IMG/VR virus record: IMGVR_UViG_651703101_000001
Span: 96,001-160,000 of that record
Origin: a virus
Lineage: Duplodnaviria; Caudoviricetes
Direction: 5' to 3' (one strand)
DNA length: 64,000 nucleotides
How positions within the stretch are numbered: the first letter of the stretch is position 1; each line of letters opens with the position of its first letter. Below are positions 31,442-53,225 of the stretch, piece after piece. The notes under the pieces are model-generated. The model worked only from the letters and a program-made list of their open reading frames with translations. It did not search any database and was not told the origin of the DNA. The translations under genes were made by a program, and so were the position numbers.

Positions 31442-31506
31442 GTGCCAGTTGAAAGACTGGCACAAGCCCCTTGACTTCCTCGGTAAGATCGGTTATGCTA
31501 GCTAAG
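31442..31506 (+). promoter_or_regulatory. palindrome plus sigma70-type promoter
   Basis: GTGCCAGT-N6-ACTGGCAC, TTGACT-N17-TATGCT, then AGCTAAG; near-identical copy at 53102-53166. Confidence 0.85.
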
Positions 31507-31546
31507 TTCAAGAAATCAATATTTCATGACTAAATAAAAGAGACAT

Positions 31547-31618
31547 GCGATCGTAGTTCAGCGGTAGAACGCTATCCTTCCAAGTTAGATGTCGCTGGTT
31601 CAAATCCAGTCGGTCGCT
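31547..31618 (+). tRNA. tRNA-Gly(TCC)
   Basis: Cloverleaf, loop CTTCCAA, T loop TTCAAAT. Confidence 0.9.
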
Positions 31619-31622
31619 CTTT

Positions 31623-31697
31623 GCCCTCGTAGTTCAGCCCGGATAGAACACCGCACTTCTAATGCGTTTGTCGTAGGTTCAAATCCTACCGAGGGTG
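31623..31697 (+). tRNA. tRNA-Arg(TCT)
   Basis: Cloverleaf, loop CTTCTAA. Confidence 0.9.
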
Positions 31698-31716
31698 CTT
31701 AAATTCTTTATTTGTT

Positions 31717-31977
31717 ATGGATTTTCCTTCAGCCAAGTCTCTTAAAGATCATTTTAATAAGTCGGATTATAACAATAATCCTGACGAAGTAATGAAGGTC
31801 CTTCTGGAAAAGATTCAATCAGCCATAAAAGCTGGCCCAACGTATAACATCACTACGGCATATGCTCCTTTACCAACAAATCGAGAAACTATCCGATCTG
31901 TTAGACTTAAATTACAAGATCTAGGGTATAGGGTCTGGATCGATCACGATGTCAGGCACATTAGTGTTTCTTGGTGA
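31717..31977 (+). CDS. hypothetical protein
   Basis: 86-aa ORF between tRNAs and late promoters. Confidence 0.5.
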   Translation: MDFPSAKSLKDHFNKSDYNNNPDEVMKVLLEKIQSAIKAGPTYNITTAYAPLPTNRETIRSVRLKLQDLGYRVWIDHDVRHISVSW

Positions 31978-31985
31978 CGAAAAGT

Positions 31986-32036
31986 TACTAAATAAAACAG
32001 TCAAGCTTAAAAGCCTACTAAATAAACTCAGTCAAG
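31986..32036 (+). promoter_or_regulatory. tandem T4-type late promoters
   Basis: Two direct copies of TACTAAATAAA...CAGTCAAG. Confidence 0.6.
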
Positions 32037-32044
32037 ATAAAACA

Positions 32045-32191
32045 ATGACCAAACGTTTTCCTACTAATGAATTCTATCCGATCGCTGATAATAGCGATTG
32101 GGAGGTTCTTTGTGGGAAAATGTAAGGTGTAAAGCACTAAACAGCAAACCACAAAGAACCTCCCAATCGAAAGAAAGGGAGGTTCTTTTTT
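32045..32191 (+). promoter_or_regulatory. leader-peptide transcription attenuator
   Basis: 26-codon ORF 32045-32125; segment 32095-32115 perfectly complementary to 32149-32169, which can alternatively pair with 32177-32188 followed by a T-run. Confidence 0.75.
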
Positions 32192-32205
32192 ACTATGTGA
32201 TCGTT

Positions 32206-32409
32206 ATGAAATCTAAATTTGATCGTTCCAATGTTCGTTGGTTTAGGAATACCGGAATCGCCCGTCGTTATGATGAACAAGAAGACAAATGGTTTTATTA
32301 TCTTAAATCCATCGATGGATTTGATGAAGAAACTGATTACTTCCAGATTCTAGATTGGGGAGCTCATTTCCCCGCTGAAGTCGGAAACCTCCTATTTGAT
32401 AACTACTGA
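32206..32409 (+). CDS. hypothetical protein
   Basis: ATG immediately after the attenuator; abuts the next gene. Confidence 0.55.
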   Translation: MKSKFDRSNVRWFRNTGIARRYDEQEDKWFYYLKSIDGFDEETDYFQILDWGAHFPAEVGNLLFDNY

Positions 32410-32879
32410 TGAAATTCTATCTTGATTGTGAATTTAATAGTTTTGGTGGAGAACTCATCTCCCTGGCCCTAGTGTCAGAAGATGAAGAAATCCGATTCTA
32501 TGAAGTTCTTCCCTTCGATCACATGAAACTTCACCCATGGGTAGAAGAAAACGTGATTCCAGTTCTGTTTAGAAAACCAAAAAGTTGTAAGGAAAAATTT
32601 ACTCACAAGTTAGGTTGTTTTCTTCGGGAAAATGCAGTCAATGGTGAAATTACCATCGTTGCTGACTGGCCTGAAGATGTTAAATACTTCTGTGAATCTC
32701 TAATTATTGGCCCAGGTAGTGCTGTTGATATGCCGAATATCAACTTTACTATAGATAGAGTGAATCTAGTCAGTACGGTTGATTATTCCATGGTTCCTCA
32801 TAATGCTCTGGAAGATGCACTTGCATTGGCCAGAGGTGCCAGTCAAAGAACCGGCACACAAGGCCGACCAACCACCTGA
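32409..32879 (+). CDS. DEDDh 3'-5' exoribonuclease-like protein (Rv2179c-like)
   Basis: FYLDCEF...LISLALV...D...HNALEDA. Confidence 0.75.
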   Translation: MKFYLDCEFNSFGGELISLALVSEDEEIRFYEVLPFDHMKLHPWVEENVIPVLFRKPKSCKEKFTHKLGCFLRENAVNGEITIVADWPEDVKYFCESLIIGPGSAVDMPNINFTIDRVNLVSTVDYSMVPHNALEDALALARGASQRTGTQGRPTT

Positions 32880-32952
32880 TCTTGTGTTATGCTAGCTAAG
32901 TGGTCAAGAGGGACACCGATTCGCATTGGAGGCTCTCTTAACCACAACAAAT

Positions 32953-33025
32953 GGGTTCGTAGCAATGTGGCCAACTGCACCCGGCTTTTAACCGGAGTAT
33001 GTGGGTTCGATTCCCACCGGACCTA
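32953..33025 (+). tRNA. tRNA-Lys(TTT)
   Basis: Cloverleaf, loop CTTTTAA. Confidence 0.85.
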
Positions 33026-33164
33026 TTGACCGAAATCGTCATTAAACTACAAATCCTATGAAGTTTATGGTATCGGCCGGTACCTGTAATGGATTGGTAA
33101 GTCTGTTAGGACTATAATCTAATAGGTGTAGGGTCCCCTTCCTGCAGGAAAAGTAATCCACCAA

Positions 33165-33236
33165 CGGGGTGTGGCTCAGAGGTAGAGCGCTTGTTTTGGG
33201 AACAAGACGTCGCAGGTTCGATCCCTGCCATCCCGA
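33165..33236 (+). tRNA. tRNA-Pro(TGG)
   Basis: Cloverleaf, loop TTTGGGA. Confidence 0.9.
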
Positions 33237-33534
33237 TTAGGATGTTCTGACTAGGGATAGTTAGGACACCAACTGACCTCGATATCCCATCGAGACTCAC
33301 TTGGCAAATCCTATACTCTCATCATAAGGTATGATTCCTTTATGATGGTTCGTTTATACCGATCCATTGTATTTGAATTCAGGTTCGACTCCTGAATGAG
33401 TGTTTTCCTCTTAACGGATCCTATAAAGAGGGAAAGGTGAATGTAGACATTGCAAGGTCCACGCTAACCTAGAACAAAACATCATGGTTCGATTCCTAAG
33501 CTCTGGTGAGTGTGATGCGAGTTCTAAATTTTCT

Positions 33535-33619
33535 GGGTGTATGGCAACTATTGGTATGTTGCGGTTGTCTGTAAAACAACTGTCCCTGACTATTGGAGGT
33601 TCGATTCCTCTTGCGCCCA
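33535..33619 (+). tRNA. tRNA-Tyr(GTA)
   Basis: Loop CTGTAAA, long variable arm. Confidence 0.85.
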
Positions 33620-33675
33620 CTTAGTCCTAAGCATGACTCTAAACTGTTTAACCTTTTGTTATATAATAAGCTCAA

Positions 33676-34203
33676 ATGGCAAAGTTCAAAGTAGGCGACC
33701 ATGTTAGGCGCGGCCGCGGAACTAAACCCGCAGTTGTGACTTCCGTAGGTTACTGTATCTACTGTCGTTATCTTGAATCTCGTAGCACTTTCAGCGCCTA
33801 CGAATCCGATCTCGTCCTTCTAGACGAATATGAAGTAAACTCTCTTAATACTATGAACTCCACTCTCTACACTTTCAAAGAAAATGATGTCGATGTCTAT
33901 GCATCCGTCATTGGTAAGACTGAAGCCGGTCTTCTTGTCCTTGAAGTCCGCGGCGGTGGTGGTATCTTCACCAAGTCACCATCTGATGTGACCGAAGTGG
34001 TTCCTTACACCGTTTCTATTAACTTCAATGGAATCGACTCTCACTATGAAGTCCCTAAGGGTCTTCTCGCCAAAGGTGATGTTCTTCTTCGTGATGATGG
34101 CAAGTTCGGTACTGTTGTAGAACTGGACACTAAGAAGAAGAATGCCAATTCTAAACTGGTTGCCCGTCGTGTTCTGACTGAAGAACTCAGCATCGGCTCC
34201 TGA
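33676..34203 (+). CDS. hypothetical beta-rich protein
   Basis: KFKVGDHV start; 175-aa ORF. Confidence 0.6.
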   Translation: MAKFKVGDHVRRGRGTKPAVVTSVGYCIYCRYLESRSTFSAYESDLVLLDEYEVNSLNTMNSTLYTFKENDVDVYASVIGKTEAGLLVLEVRGGGGIFTKSPSDVTEVVPYTVSINFNGIDSHYEVPKGLLAKGDVLLRDDGKFGTVVELDTKKKNANSKLVARRVLTEELSIGS

Positions 34204-34518
34204 ATTTCTAGGTTAAATAGTAAGTAAAGTTTGGTAAGGAATAGAACTATCTAGCACTGCCAAATACCTAGAATTGGAAGTGGTTGGACAATCAGCTGTG
34301 CACAAGTGATTCAGGTTCGATTCCTGACACTTCCCTGGTCCTGAGTAAAGACCGTAAACTGCTCTAGTGGGGAACTACTATTCAGGCTCTTGCCGGAGTA
34401 ACTGATCCTGGCTCGAAATGGACGGCAATCCATTCTCCCAGATAGTGTCCTATCAGTACCGCCAACAGCGGGCTGATAAATAAGTCTGGTGGGTCGGACT
34501 ATAAAATTCCCACCGCCC

Positions 34519-34590
34519 GCGAATGTAATTCAGTGGTAGAATGTCTGCTTGCCAAGTAGATTGTCGTCGGTTCAAATCCGATCATTCGCT
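34519..34590 (+). tRNA. tRNA-Gly(GCC)
   Basis: Cloverleaf, loop TTGCCAA. Confidence 0.9.
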
Positions 34591-34593
34591 CTT

Positions 34594-34659
34594 GTGACAG
34601 TTGAAAGACTGGCACACACCCGGTTGACCCCCAAAGGAAAATCGGTTATCTTAGCTAAG
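34594..34659 (+). promoter_or_regulatory. palindrome plus sigma70-type promoter
   Basis: GTGACAGT-N6-ACTGGCAC, TTGACC-N17-TATCTT, AGCTAAG. Confidence 0.8.
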
Positions 34660-34856
34660 TGGTCGAGAGGGGAACGGTTGAAGCCCGATTCCCAGACTCC
34701 ACTAACTAAGGACCTAATGGCCCAACCAAAGTTAAAGTTTCTGTGGTAAAGTCGTGAAACCTAGCAAGAGATAATCTCAAATGCGAACCGCCAAAAGTCT
34801 GGAGGCGTTAAAATGAAGGACCTCTTTCCTCGGCATGAAATGAAACTGCCCACAAT

Positions 34857-34930
34857 GGTCCTGTAGCATAGTGGTCTAATGCACTACCCTGTCACGGTAG
34901 GTTACGTCGGTTCAAATCCGATCAGGATCG
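34857..34930 (+). tRNA. tRNA-Asp(GTC)
   Basis: Cloverleaf, loop CTGTCAC. Confidence 0.9.
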
Positions 34931-34984
34931 CTTAGAATAGGTTTCCGTAACCTATTCGCGATGAGACTTAATTCTCATCACTTT

Positions 34985-35055
34985 GCCTAGTTCGTCTAAT
35001 GGTAAGACAAGAGCTTCCAAACCTCTTGACGTGGGTTCGATTCCTACACTGGGTG
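34985..35055 (+). tRNA. tRNA-Trp(CCA)
   Basis: Cloverleaf, loop TTCCAAA. Confidence 0.88.
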
Positions 35056-35083
35056 TTGTCTGCATAGACATTAAACAAGCAAA

Positions 35084-35712
35084 TTGGGATTGTCTCTCCC
35101 CTATAACTGAAAAGGTTATAGAAAATCAGAATCCAATCTACGGGGTCTGAGCTTCTTCGGAAGTATAAGAGAACGAAGGATGGAGAATACGGGTGCATGC
35201 CCTTCCGACTCCACTATGCCTTTATTGGTTAAGACTCCTTGGCGGGAGAAGAAACCATAAGTAACATTTAAGAGTGAGTGCCTCGCCAAAGGTAAATGCT
35301 TCTTATCTGATTGGGGATTACAGTAGTTGTCCCAAAAGTAGTACGGAAATCTCTTAATGGAAATAAGAATCGCCGTGAAAGTAGCGTATGTCGTAGCCTT
35401 CGGGTGGCATATTTGACAAACTGCGATTGGTGAAATCGAAGCCTCTAAGGTCATTTTGGAAACGAAATGATTTCTGTCGAAAGACCTTCTGTTGGTTATG
35501 TTCACGGCATAACAGATGGAAAGATGTGCGAAACTAGAGTCTGATCAATTCAGGGTAGCAAGCATAGAAGGTGGATCCAATTAACCGATTTGCTAGTTAG
35601 AACAAACTAGAGAGGAAGAATCTAAACTCGGATACGACGAGGTGTGCGACTACTGAAAATATCATCAGTAGCATAGATTCAGTGGGACTAGACGACACTA
35701 AAGCCCACAACC
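35084..35712 (+). ncRNA. large ornate structured ncRNA (GOLLD/ROOL-class candidate)
   Basis: ~630 nt without a sense ORF between two tRNAs, dense with hairpins capped by UUCG or GAAA loops. Confidence 0.6.
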
Positions 35713-35715
35713 CAA

Positions 35716-35787
35716 TGGCATGTAGTTCAGCGGTAGAACGCTTGGCTGTTAACCAAGTTGTCGCAGGTTCGATCCCTGCCGTGCCAG
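35716..35787 (+). tRNA. tRNA-Asn(GTT)
   Basis: Cloverleaf, loop CTGTTAA. Confidence 0.92.
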
Positions 35788-35865
35788 TTGGAAGGAAACT
35801 CGGTCTTAGAGACTTCTATTCAATGAAGCCACTCACTGGTAATCAATCCAGTTCCTTCCCTAATT

Positions 35866-35941
35866 GCTCCAGTAGACAAATTGGTAAAGTCGCCTCTCTT
35901 TCAAAGAGGACATTTTGCGAGTTCGAGGCTCGTCTGGAGTT
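35866..35941 (+). tRNA. tRNA-Glu(TTC)
   Basis: Cloverleaf, loop CTTTCAA. Confidence 0.85.
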
Positions 35942-35969
35942 CTTGTCCGAAATGACATTAAACTAATAT

Positions 35970-36040
35970 ATCGTGTTAGCTCAGTGGTAGAGCAGCTTTC
36001 GATAGGAAGCAGACCCAGGTTCGATTCCGGCCACGACCCA
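35970..36040 (+). ncRNA. aberrant tRNA-like RNA (no 7-nt anticodon loop)
   Basis: Intact D arm (TAGCTCAGTGGTAGAGC) and GGTTCGATTCC; anticodon arm folds as GCTTTC-GATA-GGAAGC; ends in CCA. Confidence 0.6.
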
Positions 36041-36042
36041 AT

Positions 36043-36115
36043 ACAGTCATCGACTAGCGGTCTAGGTCGCTACCCTCTCAAGGTGGAAACACCAGTTCAA
36101 ATCTGGTTGGCTGTA
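36043..36115 (+). tRNA. tRNA-Glu(CTC)
   Basis: Cloverleaf, loop CTCTCAA. Confidence 0.85.
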
Positions 36116-36568
36116 TTTGCTATAGAAAGTTCCTGTAACCCAACCTAACCTTAGCGGGGGGTTACCTTCGGGAGAATCCCCGCTGCCACAATTACTTTCC
36201 AGCAAACACTAAAAATAAGTCATAGGAAATTCCTTTGAATACCCAACTTTTGGTCGTGGGTTCGAGCCCCACCATCATAACTTCGGTTATGGTGTAGCTC
36301 AGTTGGTAGAGCGAAAGTCATTCTATTTCCCGACTAAAACTAAAATCTTGTCAAAAGAAGTTCCTGTTTTATACACTTTTAATGTAGCCACTATACTTCT
36401 CGACAACCCTTAAATAAGGCACATGAGGTTCCTTTCAAACCCTTTGTCTGAAACACAAACTCATTACCTCTCGCCTTAAAACCAAAAAGATAAAAGAAGT
36501 TCCTCTTTTCTGTAGGTTCGACTCCTACAGAGCTCATCGAGCTCTGACGGTTAATTTTACTTCTCATC
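36116..36568 (+). ncRNA. array of five Y-RNA-like stem-loop RNAs (36116-36206, 36218-36335, 36348-36406, 36416-36477, 36489-36568)
   Basis: Each unit: outer stem, AHA opposite a single C, 6-bp stem, invariant TCCT, variable insert; stems covary between units. Confidence 0.8.
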
Positions 36569-38484: not shown

Positions 38485-38673
38485 TAACTAAATAGATGTA
38501 CCAGTTGAGGAACTGGCACACCAGGCATCCCACCGGGGTCAATCGGTGTTATGCTAGCTAAGTGGTCAAGAGAGACCGGCCCGAGATATCGGTAACCGAC
38601 TGTTTCTTGACCACAACATGACCTCCTAAAAGATAACAGTCCATGGTTTTGCGTAGGGTGACACCCTACATCA

Positions 38674-38748
38674 CCGGGTGTAGCTCAGTTTGGCCAGAGC
38701 ATTCCGTTTGGGGCGGAGGGGTCAGAGGTTCAAATCCTCTCACTCGGA
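38674..38748 (+). tRNA. tRNA-Pro(TGG), second copy
   Basis: Cloverleaf, loop TTTGGGG. Confidence 0.85.
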
Positions 38749-43810: not shown

Positions 43811-45064
43811 TTAGTTAGTGAAAACTAACACAACTATTTATTTATTTGTTATGACACGAGGCGTTTATCATTTTTATCAAGACTTCGGCCGCCCTGGCTC
43901 CCTTGATGGTGTCTTTGTCGCCGACATTGAACAAGTCGAAAAGGTATACGGACTCCAGGCTTACTTCGGTGAAGTTCTAGGTAAACATTCCGAAGTCTAT
44001 TGTGAAGTCACACCGGACAACCTGAAACTCATCACGGATGAACCCTCTGATGTTGAGGTGTTCGACCGTTACAACATCAATGTTGGTTATAACCCACTGG
44101 ACTATGTTGACTTCGATGAAGATGATGAGGAATGGGACGAAGAAGATGAAGGTAAAAGTCCATTGGAAATCACAAAGGAAAGTATGGAACTTGTCCTGCG
44201 TTCGATGGTGACAACTCTTCAGAGAACGGACCTTAGTGATTCTAAAGATCCTGTGTGACAGTCCACAAACTGTCACACGTTTTTCCCGTTCGTCAACCAC
44301 GCACCCCATAATAAAAGAACACAAGAGGGAGGGCCCAATGGATTATCAAACCAAAGTCACCCGATTCCCCAATGGATTCGGTTGCCGAATCTTCCTCAAT
44401 GATGTTCTCATTGTGGAGGGCCGATCCCCTTCCAAGGAACTGATTGGTCCTACATTCCGTGACCTGTTCCGAACCCTGGATAAAATGGGTGGAAACAAAC
44501 AGACTTCCGAGATTCGTAAACGGAAGTTCAAGGAAGGAAACCAATGTGTCTCTGTGAAACACATTTGGCACTACAATCCTGGGATCATCTACCCATAACC
44601 TGTGTGCCGGTCAAGGAACTGGCACACAGACTCACCACACGGGTCCAAACCCTGTTAAGCTAGCTAAGTGATCGAGACAGACCAATGAAACTTCAAATCT
44701 TCGTTACAACTCCCCTTGGAGTTGTAACGAGTCTTACTCAAGAGGTGACTCAAGATGAACATGATGGTCTCCATGACCTTCTCAAACGTTCTGATCTTAC
44801 CTATTTCACTTTCAAAGATGAAATGGGTGATGTAGTCCACCTACCGGAGAATGTAGTCAAGAACTCCATTTTCCAACTACGAATCCTCAAATAATGTAAC
44901 ACGCCCGACCATGGGTGGCACCGGGGAGGTTCACTAGATAAAGTAAATCGGGTCGTAGTCAAAGGTCTGAACCCCTGAGACTAGCTGATGGTTGAAACGT
45001 CTTGCCCTATTAGGTGGTTGGATCATTCCCAACTCGGGTATACCTTTAACAATAGAAGATTATC

Positions 45065-52788: not shown

Positions 52789-53225
52789 TCACAATGAAAA
52801 TCTACCAAACGTATCGTCAATCGGATGAAATCGAAGGGCGAGGACCGATGCTTCCAGATTTGGCATTTAAATATAAAATTCATGCAGAAAGGTATATTGA
52901 TTCCCAACCAGGAATCATGGGTAGAACTGCAGAATGGTCCAAAGAAGTCTATGGAGACTGGACTATCAAAACTGTTGACATTCTCGATTTTGATGTTGTT
53001 GAGGCAGGTGTAGAAAAGGTGAGAACTAAACTCCGCGCCCAGGAAAAGTTTGAATACTTCCTTTCTACTCTCACGGATGAAGAAATCGAATTCCTTGAAC
53101 TGTGACACTCAACCAACTGGCACAAGCCCCTTGACTTCCCCGGTAAGATCGGTTATGCTAGCTAAGTGGTCGGGGTTGAGGGTTCCCTTACTCATTGATT
53201 CCGACCTACTAAATAAAACAGACAA

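Follow-up and report, generated by a model that had tools for sequence, protein, structure and literature searches.

Within a 64,000-nt window of DNA from a T4-like phage (bases 96001–160000 of a 178,563-nt virus record, G000), a leader open reading frame (ORF) of 26 codons lies between two late promoters and the genes for a small protein, an exonuclease and several tRNAs. We propose that this leader is a ribosome-mediated (leader-peptide) transcription attenuator of the four-segment design, placed at the late-promoter entry to the small gene, the exonuclease gene and the tRNA genes, and we put the probability of this reading at roughly 50%. If it is correct, the downstream genes would probably be transcribed only when ribosomes read the leader slowly. 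The element has the structural features of a leader-peptide attenuator: an ORF with a usable start, a terminator before the first gene, a mutually exclusive antiterminator, a further hairpin within the ORF, and a geometry in which a ribosome could mask one arm of the competing helices. What is observed is the sequence, together with three helices that compete with one another, and how stable and how conserved these are; how the element would respond to ribosomes was modeled.

The window has a GC content of 39.7% and encodes T4-type replication proteins (a family B polymerase, a clamp loader and a DnaB-like helicase) as well as CobS-like genes. At the DNA level it is closest to Synechococcus myoviruses, with low identity. 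The window holds 34 of the genome's 36 tRNA genes, which together cover 19 amino acids and include none for Gln. Under wobble rules, these 36 tRNAs read 88–93% of the phage's own codon usage.

A leader reading frame with three competing helices

The leader ORF occupies 32045–32125 on the plus strand and comprises 26 codons and a TAA stop (32123–32125), with MTKRFPTNEFYPIADNSDWEVLCGKM as the encoded peptide. This peptide uses 18 of the 20 amino acids and is missing His and Gln. How uncommon is such diversity? In random draws, at least 18 distinct residues in 26 occur with P = 0.007; the same level is reached by one of 300 ORF N-termini and by 0.28% of all 26-residue windows of the genome. The diversity is statistically unusual (P ~0.003–0.007), but it was noticed post hoc, and part of it comes from the half of the peptide that is not conserved.

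Two tandem late promoters with the motif TACTAAATAAA precede the ORF on the plus strand. P1 spans 31986–31996 (core CTAAATA at 31988–31994), with a predicted start near 32000. P2 spans 32016–32026 (core at 32018–32024), and its predicted start near 32030 would give a 15-nt 5′ untranslated region (UTR). In the T4-like phage Aeh1, a CTAAATA sequence starting at −12 has been put forward as the late promoter, according to excerpts of the report (PMC1524935). The genome contains 49 CTAAATA sites, a count near the expectation from base composition, and their orientation mostly follows gene direction. Nineteen of the 49 sit 20–32 nt upstream of the ATG of a co-oriented ORF, and six sit 15–19 nt ahead of the first base of a tRNA cluster. 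The P2 motif lies 27 nt before ATG 32045, a distance typical of the protein genes rather than of the tRNA genes.

Four segments, all on the plus strand, overlap or follow the ORF. Segment A (32053–32087) is the 5′ arm of a hairpin, A:B, that is closed by a loop at 32088–32091 and has segment B (32092–32123) as its 3′ arm. The core of B (32095–32115) doubles as the 5′ arm of the antiterminator B:C; it is the perfect 21-nt complement of segment C (32149–32169), with 33 nt between the arms. Part of C (32153–32164) serves in addition as the 5′ arm of the terminator C:D, pairing perfectly over 12 bp with 32177–32188 in segment D (32177–32194, U-run included), after which a run of six T residues (the U-run, 32189–32194) follows. 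Together, A:B, B:C and C:D make up the classical four-segment attenuator layout. Much of this had been claimed in an earlier, sequence-only reading of the window. The tandem promoters, the ATG at 32045 with its 18-of-20 peptide, the 21-nt complementarity and the alternative pairing into a terminator with a U-run were all borne out. That reading was also right that mutually exclusive hairpins overlap the leader ORF, but it counted three segments where there are four, having missed A:B.

The folding energies of these helices are pronounced. In the window, the A:B hairpin (32053–32123) has an energy of −33.8 kcal/mol (z = −7.5), B:C of −47.4 kcal/mol (z = −11.4) and C:D of −21.0 kcal/mol (z = −5.7). 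The region 32030–32200 as a whole folds at −60.9 kcal/mol (z = −7.6), and none of 200 shuffled sequences did as well. Over 32040–32200, the combination of A:B and C:D reaches −60.6 kcal/mol, versus −53.1 kcal/mol when B:C is enforced. The 12-mer GGGAGGTTCTTT has three exact copies in the 64-kb window, all of them at the leader, and a fourth match with one mismatch; 0.40 matches would be expected.

An upstream competitor of this kind sets the terminator apart from others in the genome. The duplex between the terminator's 5′ arm and its upstream complement scores −35.0 kcal/mol here. The 178.6-kb genome has 25 further terminator-like hairpins, for which the values range from −6.3 to −14.6 kcal/mol, and no second attenuator of this type was found among the 26. 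When the fetched loci were added to the genome (477 kb), an upstream complement of at least 9 nt was present in three of 55 terminator-like hairpins: the window's own, its homologue in a relative (L028, described below) and a single 9-mer in locus L012. In a comparison with Rfam covariance models, T-box included, only tRNAs reached the gathering score, and the best other match in the region had 28.5 bits against a cut-off of 43. There are no other terminators between 31698 and 32153.

The first gene behind the terminator, for a 67-aa protein, lies at 32206–32409 on the plus strand and has a possible alternative start at GTG 32197. It needs read-through for its expression because only 11 nt (32195–32205) separate the end of the U-run from its ATG. 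The same holds for late expression downstream in general, since the terminator ends 11 nt before this gene and the next CTAAATA after P2 occurs only at 38488. The 67-aa gene and the exonuclease gene that overlaps it leave no room for a promoter of their own.

Conservation of the leader and its helices

Most searches for relatives of the element returned nothing usable. DNA patterns of the repeat, including a variant with R at 32105, had no matches; neither did back-translated leader patterns in viral and genome contigs, and a tblastn search of phages with the 26-aa peptide gave only noise at E = 1. The region was absent from 22 loci with a CobS neighbour (L006–L027). A search of viral contigs with the exonuclease found only distant phages without the leader (L003–L005), and protein genes, with no leader, stand upstream of the exonuclease in L029 (71% identical) and in phages B3 and B23 (64%). 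With the exonuclease as anchor, however, metagenome contigs yielded L028, a contig of 1386 nt. Public runs supplied two partial relatives as contigs only: one that is ~97% identical to the window (X1 and X3) and a more distant one (X8).

The gene order of L028 is that of the window: tRNA-Gly(tcc), tRNA-Arg(tct), two TACTAAATAAA motifs, a 26-codon ORF, the hairpins, the 67-aa gene, the exonuclease and tRNA-Lys(ttt). An 86-aa gene of the window is absent from it. The flanking genes are 76–78% identical in DNA. Within the element, identity is 89% for the promoters and UTR, 95% for codons 1–14, 87% for codons 15–27, 88% for the loop between B and C, and 66% from C to D. L028 keeps the ORF, both promoters and all three helices. 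Its helices have energies of −24.3 kcal/mol for A:B (z = −3.3), −28.3 kcal/mol for B:C (z = −5.8) and −13.2 kcal/mol for C:D (z = −4.3); in both the window and L028, each helix is far more stable than shuffled sequence.

The leader ORF of L028 has the same start, stop and length as that of the window, and an in-frame stop lies two codons upstream of its ATG. Length and frame are kept despite a 1-nt indel in the UTR, which makes the distance from the P2 motif to the ATG 28 nt, and despite indels behind the ORF. The L028 peptide, MTKRFPTNEFYPIAGNSDWDLLRGQM, contains 17 distinct residues. Changes between the two leaders are unevenly placed. Codons 1–14 show no amino-acid changes and two synonymous ones, and codons 15–26 show five amino-acid changes; a comparison of the two halves for amino-acid versus silent changes gives a Fisher P of 0.048 (hand calculation). 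In codons 1–14, two of 14 third positions are changed, versus 93 of 224 in two neighbouring genes (P ~0.03, hand calculation). When X1/X3 are included, where neither of the two leader changes falls at a third codon position, the six distinct amino-acid changes all lie within codons 15–25. These are outside the sensing zone that was obtained by ribosome modeling (next section), and the conserved half coincides with that zone.

Do the helices themselves show signs of selection? For the terminator, the pattern of substitution argues clearly that they do. Of its 12 pairs, five are invariant between the window and L028, two are changed on one side, four are compensatory and one is lost, and swapping arms between the two sequences costs about half of the duplex energy. 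This comparison points to selection of the terminator as an RNA helix. For B:C, one compensatory pair was found (32111 T>C with 32153 A>G). The three substitutions in the B arm of L028 fit its C arm better than 99.8% of random triple substitutions, and in pairing with the L028 C arm they gain only 2.9 kcal/mol over the B arm of the window. B:C is retained while tolerating central defects, and its support is weaker than that of the terminator.

The partial relatives extend this picture. X1/X3 carry 32088 A>G in the loop of A:B (ATAA to GTAA), which produces the change D15G that is also present in L028. The X8 relative keeps CTAAATA 27 nt upstream of the ATG together with the sequence of 32075–32128; 74 unaligned letters stand in place of 32129–32408, and then comes the start of the exonuclease gene. 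It is without the 67-aa gene, the 86-aa gene and tRNA-Arg. Judging from these comparisons, the promoter–leader–terminator unit is retained while its neighbours come and go.

Ribosome position, folding and competing explanations

The predicted course of folding depends on how much of the RNA has been made. As the transcript grows, the predicted optimum is A:B until 32154, B:C at 32160–32178, and A:B with C:D from 32184 onward. The barrier along the path from A:B to B:C, before D exists, is 15.5 kcal/mol, and that from B:C to A:B plus C:D is 10.7 kcal/mol; both values are heuristic upper bounds. This modeling suggests that the first-formed helix decides the outcome, i.e., that the switch is kinetically controlled. 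The influence of a ribosome was modeled by blocking a 27-nt footprint around each P-site codon, in an equilibrium model only. With the P site on codons 5–14, the modeled probability of the terminator is at most 0.12 and the antiterminator dominates; on codons 15–26 it is 0.97, and on codons 1–4 it is mixed (0.37–0.47). Without a ribosome, the full-length RNA has a value of 0.97. The same pattern, less sharp, emerges for L028.

These results bear on several claims of the sequence-only reading. It expected termination from a ribosome positioned in the 3′ half of the ORF and read-through from an early stall, and the footprint modeling agrees on both counts. It had also held that failed initiation would lead to read-through, which the modeling contradicts: an untranslated leader should terminate because A:B ties up B when no ribosome is present, as reflected in the terminator probability of 0.97 and the barrier of 15.5 kcal/mol. 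We liken this behaviour to trp super-attenuation. Finally, read-through had been said to lead into the exoribonuclease gene and the tRNA region. The exonuclease gene does follow, but the first gene reached is the 67-aa ORF, and the tRNAs are reached only possibly, given a promoter-like element at 32886. For the 67-aa gene and the exonuclease, the importance of read-through is clear; for the tRNAs, it is only possible.

We infer that the ORF is translated, that transcription ends at the U-run, and that read-through responds to the position of the ribosome. The proposed sequence of events is as follows. RNA started near 32000 or 32030 would carry the 26-codon ORF, and A and B, both within it, would pair first. 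If no ribosome arrived, A:B would persist, C:D would form, and the terminator (32153–32194) would stop transcription; a ribosome that reached the stop codon would cover B, and termination would likewise ensue. A ribosome held with its P site at about codons 5–14 would instead open A:B and leave B free. Free B would capture the newly made C over 21 bp, D would be left without a partner, and RNA polymerase would go on to transcribe the 67-aa gene, then the exonuclease gene and, late in infection, also the tRNA genes downstream.

What might such a device sense? The sequence-only reading had suggested a general sensor of tRNA loss or translation shut-off, with a peptide of 18 of the 20 amino acids; the analysis lends this idea no support. 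L028 uses 17, and the amino-acid changes all fall where stalling would not help read-through. One possibility, which we advance tentatively and would not rate as probable, is that it gauges translation speed without regard to particular codons. Slow decoding of any of about ten diverse codons in the first half of the leader would then cause late read-through into the RNA-processing exonuclease and the tRNA block, matching tRNA supply to demand. Slow decoding could result from depletion of host tRNAs, cleavage by defence nucleases, or a mismatch between phage and host codon usage. If this were true, the tRNA genes themselves would be part of a feedback loop.

A number of observations weigh against the attenuator. 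The stalling zone has no tandem or clustered codons for one amino acid: codons 2–15 read T K R F P T N E F Y P I A D, in which no residue is used more than twice and none in tandem. The leader's codons are not enriched for those that the 36 phage tRNAs can read: 24 of 26 are readable under strict wobble (P = 0.41) and 26 of 26 under liberal wobble (P = 0.16), versus the 88–93% expected. (Of the codons that follow Met, 13 of 25 specify amino acids carried by the nine tRNAs that come before the next late promoter; an estimated ~40% would be expected from typical protein composition, and this was given no weight.) No Shine-Dalgarno sequence precedes the leader ATG, although the other late genes examined mostly lack one too. 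Over the whole ORF, the comparison with L028 shows no purifying selection on the peptide (five amino-acid versus two silent changes), and constraint at the RNA level could explain the conservation of codons 1–14 without any translation. The helices also present difficulties. In the column register of the MAFFT alignment with L028, the 21 pairs of B:C divide into 10 invariant, two changed on one side, one compensatory and eight lost; L028 recovers 18 pairs (three of them G-U) only in a register with a 2-nt bulge, and its B arm pairs with the window's C arm (−24.1) about as well as with its own (−22.9). In X1/X3, the change 32105 G>A, which results in V21I, places an uncompensated A-C mismatch in the middle of B:C. 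The 29 pairs of A:B comprise 25 invariant, one changed on one side, three lost and none compensatory. A search of public runs gave no RNA run that contains the stretch. The comparative base, one full relative (L028) plus partial contigs, is thin, and the coupling of translation to late phage transcription in the host is an assumption.

Could the element be something other than an attenuator? The most credible alternative, albeit still an unlikely one, is a self-contained small late unit. P1 and P2 would then drive an RNA of ~165–195 nt that ends at the terminator and matters in itself, as a stable small RNA, as the message for the 26-aa peptide, or in both roles; the genes downstream would depend only on leak-through or on other promoters. 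A promoter, canonical ATG spacing and a strong terminator do make a complete unit, and the most stable fold of the terminated RNA is A:B plus C:D. The T4 tRNA region encodes stable small RNAs. Moreover, DNA conservation within the locus is highest (89–95%) over the 5′ UTR and the initial 42 nt of the ORF, which would suit the seed of a small RNA or a functional N-terminal peptide, and the trpL leader RNA and peptide of Sinorhizobium act in trans, according to excerpts of PMC7298713 and bioRxiv 10.1101/864512. Such a unit nonetheless leaves unexplained why B–C complementarity is kept across divergence and why only this terminator of 26 has such a competitor. It is also hard to reconcile with a 67-aa gene that begins just past the U-run with no promoter of its own, and with the lack of conservation in the C-terminal half of the peptide. 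The two readings are, in any case, mutually compatible.

It is rather unlikely, in our estimation, that the same switch is flipped by something other than a ribosome and that the ORF is incidental. The factor might be a phage or host RNA-binding protein (possibly the 67-aa protein, in feedback), or a tRNA or small RNA acting on A or A:B. The nucleotide conservation of codons 1–14 exceeds what coding would need, there is no codon run, and the ORF is only putatively translated; all this would suit such a factor. Counting against it are the lack of an Rfam match, T-box included, the lack of a recognisable fold or family for the 67-aa protein, and the fit of the ATG spacing, the open frame and the stop position to the ribosome model in two diverged sequences. 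A constitutive, leaky terminator is quite improbable. It would close the upstream tRNA-Gly/tRNA-Arg/86-aa unit and fix a lower downstream level, with B:C as an RNase III-type processing site in the read-through RNA; the lack of another terminator between 31698 and 32153 accords with this, and at 21 bp the perfect helix is roughly as long as an RNase III substrate. Yet two conserved promoters placed 130–165 nt before a constitutive stop would be wasteful, the stem in L028 is bulged and rich in G-U pairs, and neither the exclusivity with the terminator nor the A:B competitor finds an explanation. We regard as most improbable of all a feature at the level of DNA, in which the three exact 12-mer copies, within 90 bp and in the orientations + − +, would be protein-binding sites or a relic of recombination. 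The copies in L028 have diverged from each other yet keep RNA-type pairing, including G-U, which would be meaningless in DNA, and a U-run follows the third copy in both the window and L028.

The proposed attenuator resembles, and differs from, several known systems. Leader-peptide attenuators are familiar from amino-acid operons, among them the E. coli trpL, hisL, leuL, thrL, pheL and ilv leaders. As in attenuators of the trpL type, a short ORF covers segments 1 and 2, and the helices 1:2, 2:3 (antiterminator) and 3:4 (terminator with U-run) are mutually exclusive; a ribosome at the stop codon would mask segment 2, and an untranslated leader is predicted to terminate. Unlike those leaders, the phage leader has no codon run for one amino acid, and its peptide is unusually diverse. 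The element is driven by phage late promoters, its antiterminator is unusually long (21 perfect pairs), and the genes behind it are those of a small protein of no recognised family, an exonuclease and tRNAs rather than a biosynthetic operon. T-box riboswitches, which bind uncharged tRNA directly and need no ORF, would share with it a choice between terminator and antiterminator that is tied to tRNA status; the element differs from them in having no T-box match in Rfam.

Closer parallels for a general sensor may be leader ORFs that respond to translation stress, such as E. coli toiL ahead of topAI (PMC12121999) and B. subtilis vmlR (PMC9226507). As excerpts of these reports describe them, they too are short upstream ORFs without amino-acid-specific runs, in which stalling at various positions leads to read-through of a premature terminator, as is proposed here. 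However, those leaders answer antibiotics and control resistance or toxin genes, and toiL works via Rho, whereas the terminator of the phage element is intrinsic. The excerpted S. meliloti trpL work (PMC7298713, bioRxiv 10.1101/864512) offers a further likeness, in that a terminated RNA and its peptide could have functions of their own; this would fit the conserved 5′ half. The S. meliloti leader, however, contains Trp codons and controls trpE(G), and a function in trans is hypothetical here.

If the attenuator is real, it would be the first control circuit of its kind, reading ribosome speed where late promoters lead into a block of tRNA and exonuclease genes. Leader-peptide attenuation would then be known from viruses, for tRNA genes and, probably, in cyanobacterial hosts as well. 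To our knowledge, almost nothing has been established about the regulation of phage tRNA genes. Attenuator-like leaders before E. coli tRNA-Phe genes were reportedly discussed in the 1980s. A search of the open-access literature, with subscription journals and older papers largely outside its coverage, turned up no account of phage tRNA regions being controlled by leader-peptide attenuation. Excerpts of recent work describe phage tRNA genes as a means of overcoming codon mismatch and host defences based on the cleavage or withholding of tRNAs (PMC11464382, PMC11555353; PMC11726456 for a cyanobacterial host). The element is small and sharply defined, and so the proposal is directly testable.

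Genes behind the terminator and neighbouring features

The 67-aa protein has four metagenome relatives at 76% identity (P0002–P0005), namely that of L028 and three further proteins. In X1/X3, nine of the 12 changes in its gene are at third codon positions. It has no family in Pfam, PHROG or NCBIfam; its predicted fold is small and beta-rich (pLDDT 71), with no match in the PDB at E ≤ 0.001. Neither it nor the 86-aa protein had a match in viral contigs, an alignment against genome contigs gave one spurious short match for the 67-aa protein, and neither it nor a 175-aa protein had a match in phage records. The gene that follows (32409–32879, plus strand) encodes a DEDD-type 3′–5′ exonuclease (PHROG 2259, E = 4e-33) that is 76% identical in L028. 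It matches the RNase AS model weakly (E = 1e-4, far under that model's cut-off) and has no match among PDB sequences.

Next comes tRNA-Lys(ttt), at 32952–33026 on the plus strand, the first of nine tRNA genes that precede the CTAAATA at 38488; it holds the same place in L028. These nine genes (32952–36116) have no CTAAATA of their own. A conserved element, GTTATGCTAGCTAAGTGGTC, occurs at 32886, ahead of tRNA-Lys. At another copy, near 31493, TATGCT stands 17 nt after TTGACT (31471–31499), which makes a good sigma-70-type promoter. The tRNA block may have an early promoter, in which case the attenuator would govern late tRNA expression only.

Copies of GTTATGCTAGCTAAGTGGTC were seen at 31493–31509, 32886–32910, 34645–34669, 38548–38572, 44661–44673 and 53159–53171 in the window, and before tRNA-Lys in L028 (1149–1168), and they are often just ahead of tRNA clusters. 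As a 25-mer with up to three mismatches, the element has three copies; as a 13-mer, it has eight matches versus 0.95 expected. The copies at 32886, 34645 and 38548 continue into hairpins whose arms differ between copies. The element may act as an early promoter, as a structured RNA, or in both ways.

By eye, the non-coding stretch 33027–33135 after tRNA-Lys (1273–1386 in L028) looks well conserved, more so than tRNA-Gly and tRNA-Arg. It contains no ORF, tRNA or Rfam match, and it may be another structured RNA. The tRNA-Gly(tcc) and tRNA-Arg(tct) genes themselves (31547–31698; 66–235 in L028) keep their anticodons and order, with identities of only 64% and 58%, versus 87–95% for the leader.

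Between tRNA-Arg and the promoters lies the 86-aa ORF (31717–31977), which is under purifying selection in X1/X3 (six of seven changes at third positions) and which is missing from L028 and from the X8-type relative. A longer candidate in the frame of the leader, a 58-aa ORF from ATG 31949, was rejected, as it has no homologue and no family and is interrupted by an in-frame stop in L028; in X1/X3, all four of the changes in it are at first or second codon positions.

The six CTAAATA sites ahead of tRNA clusters are at 31530, 43574, 45253, 48993, 53209 and 53309, and tRNAs transcribed from these late promoters would carry leaders of a few nucleotides only. In T4, tRNAs are expressed before replication. 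The CTAAATA at 38488 is followed by ~185 nt (38488–38673) before tRNA-Pro begins at 38674; this stretch is without a called tRNA or an ORF at gene spacing, and it holds one of the copies of GTTATGCTAGCTAAGTGGTC.

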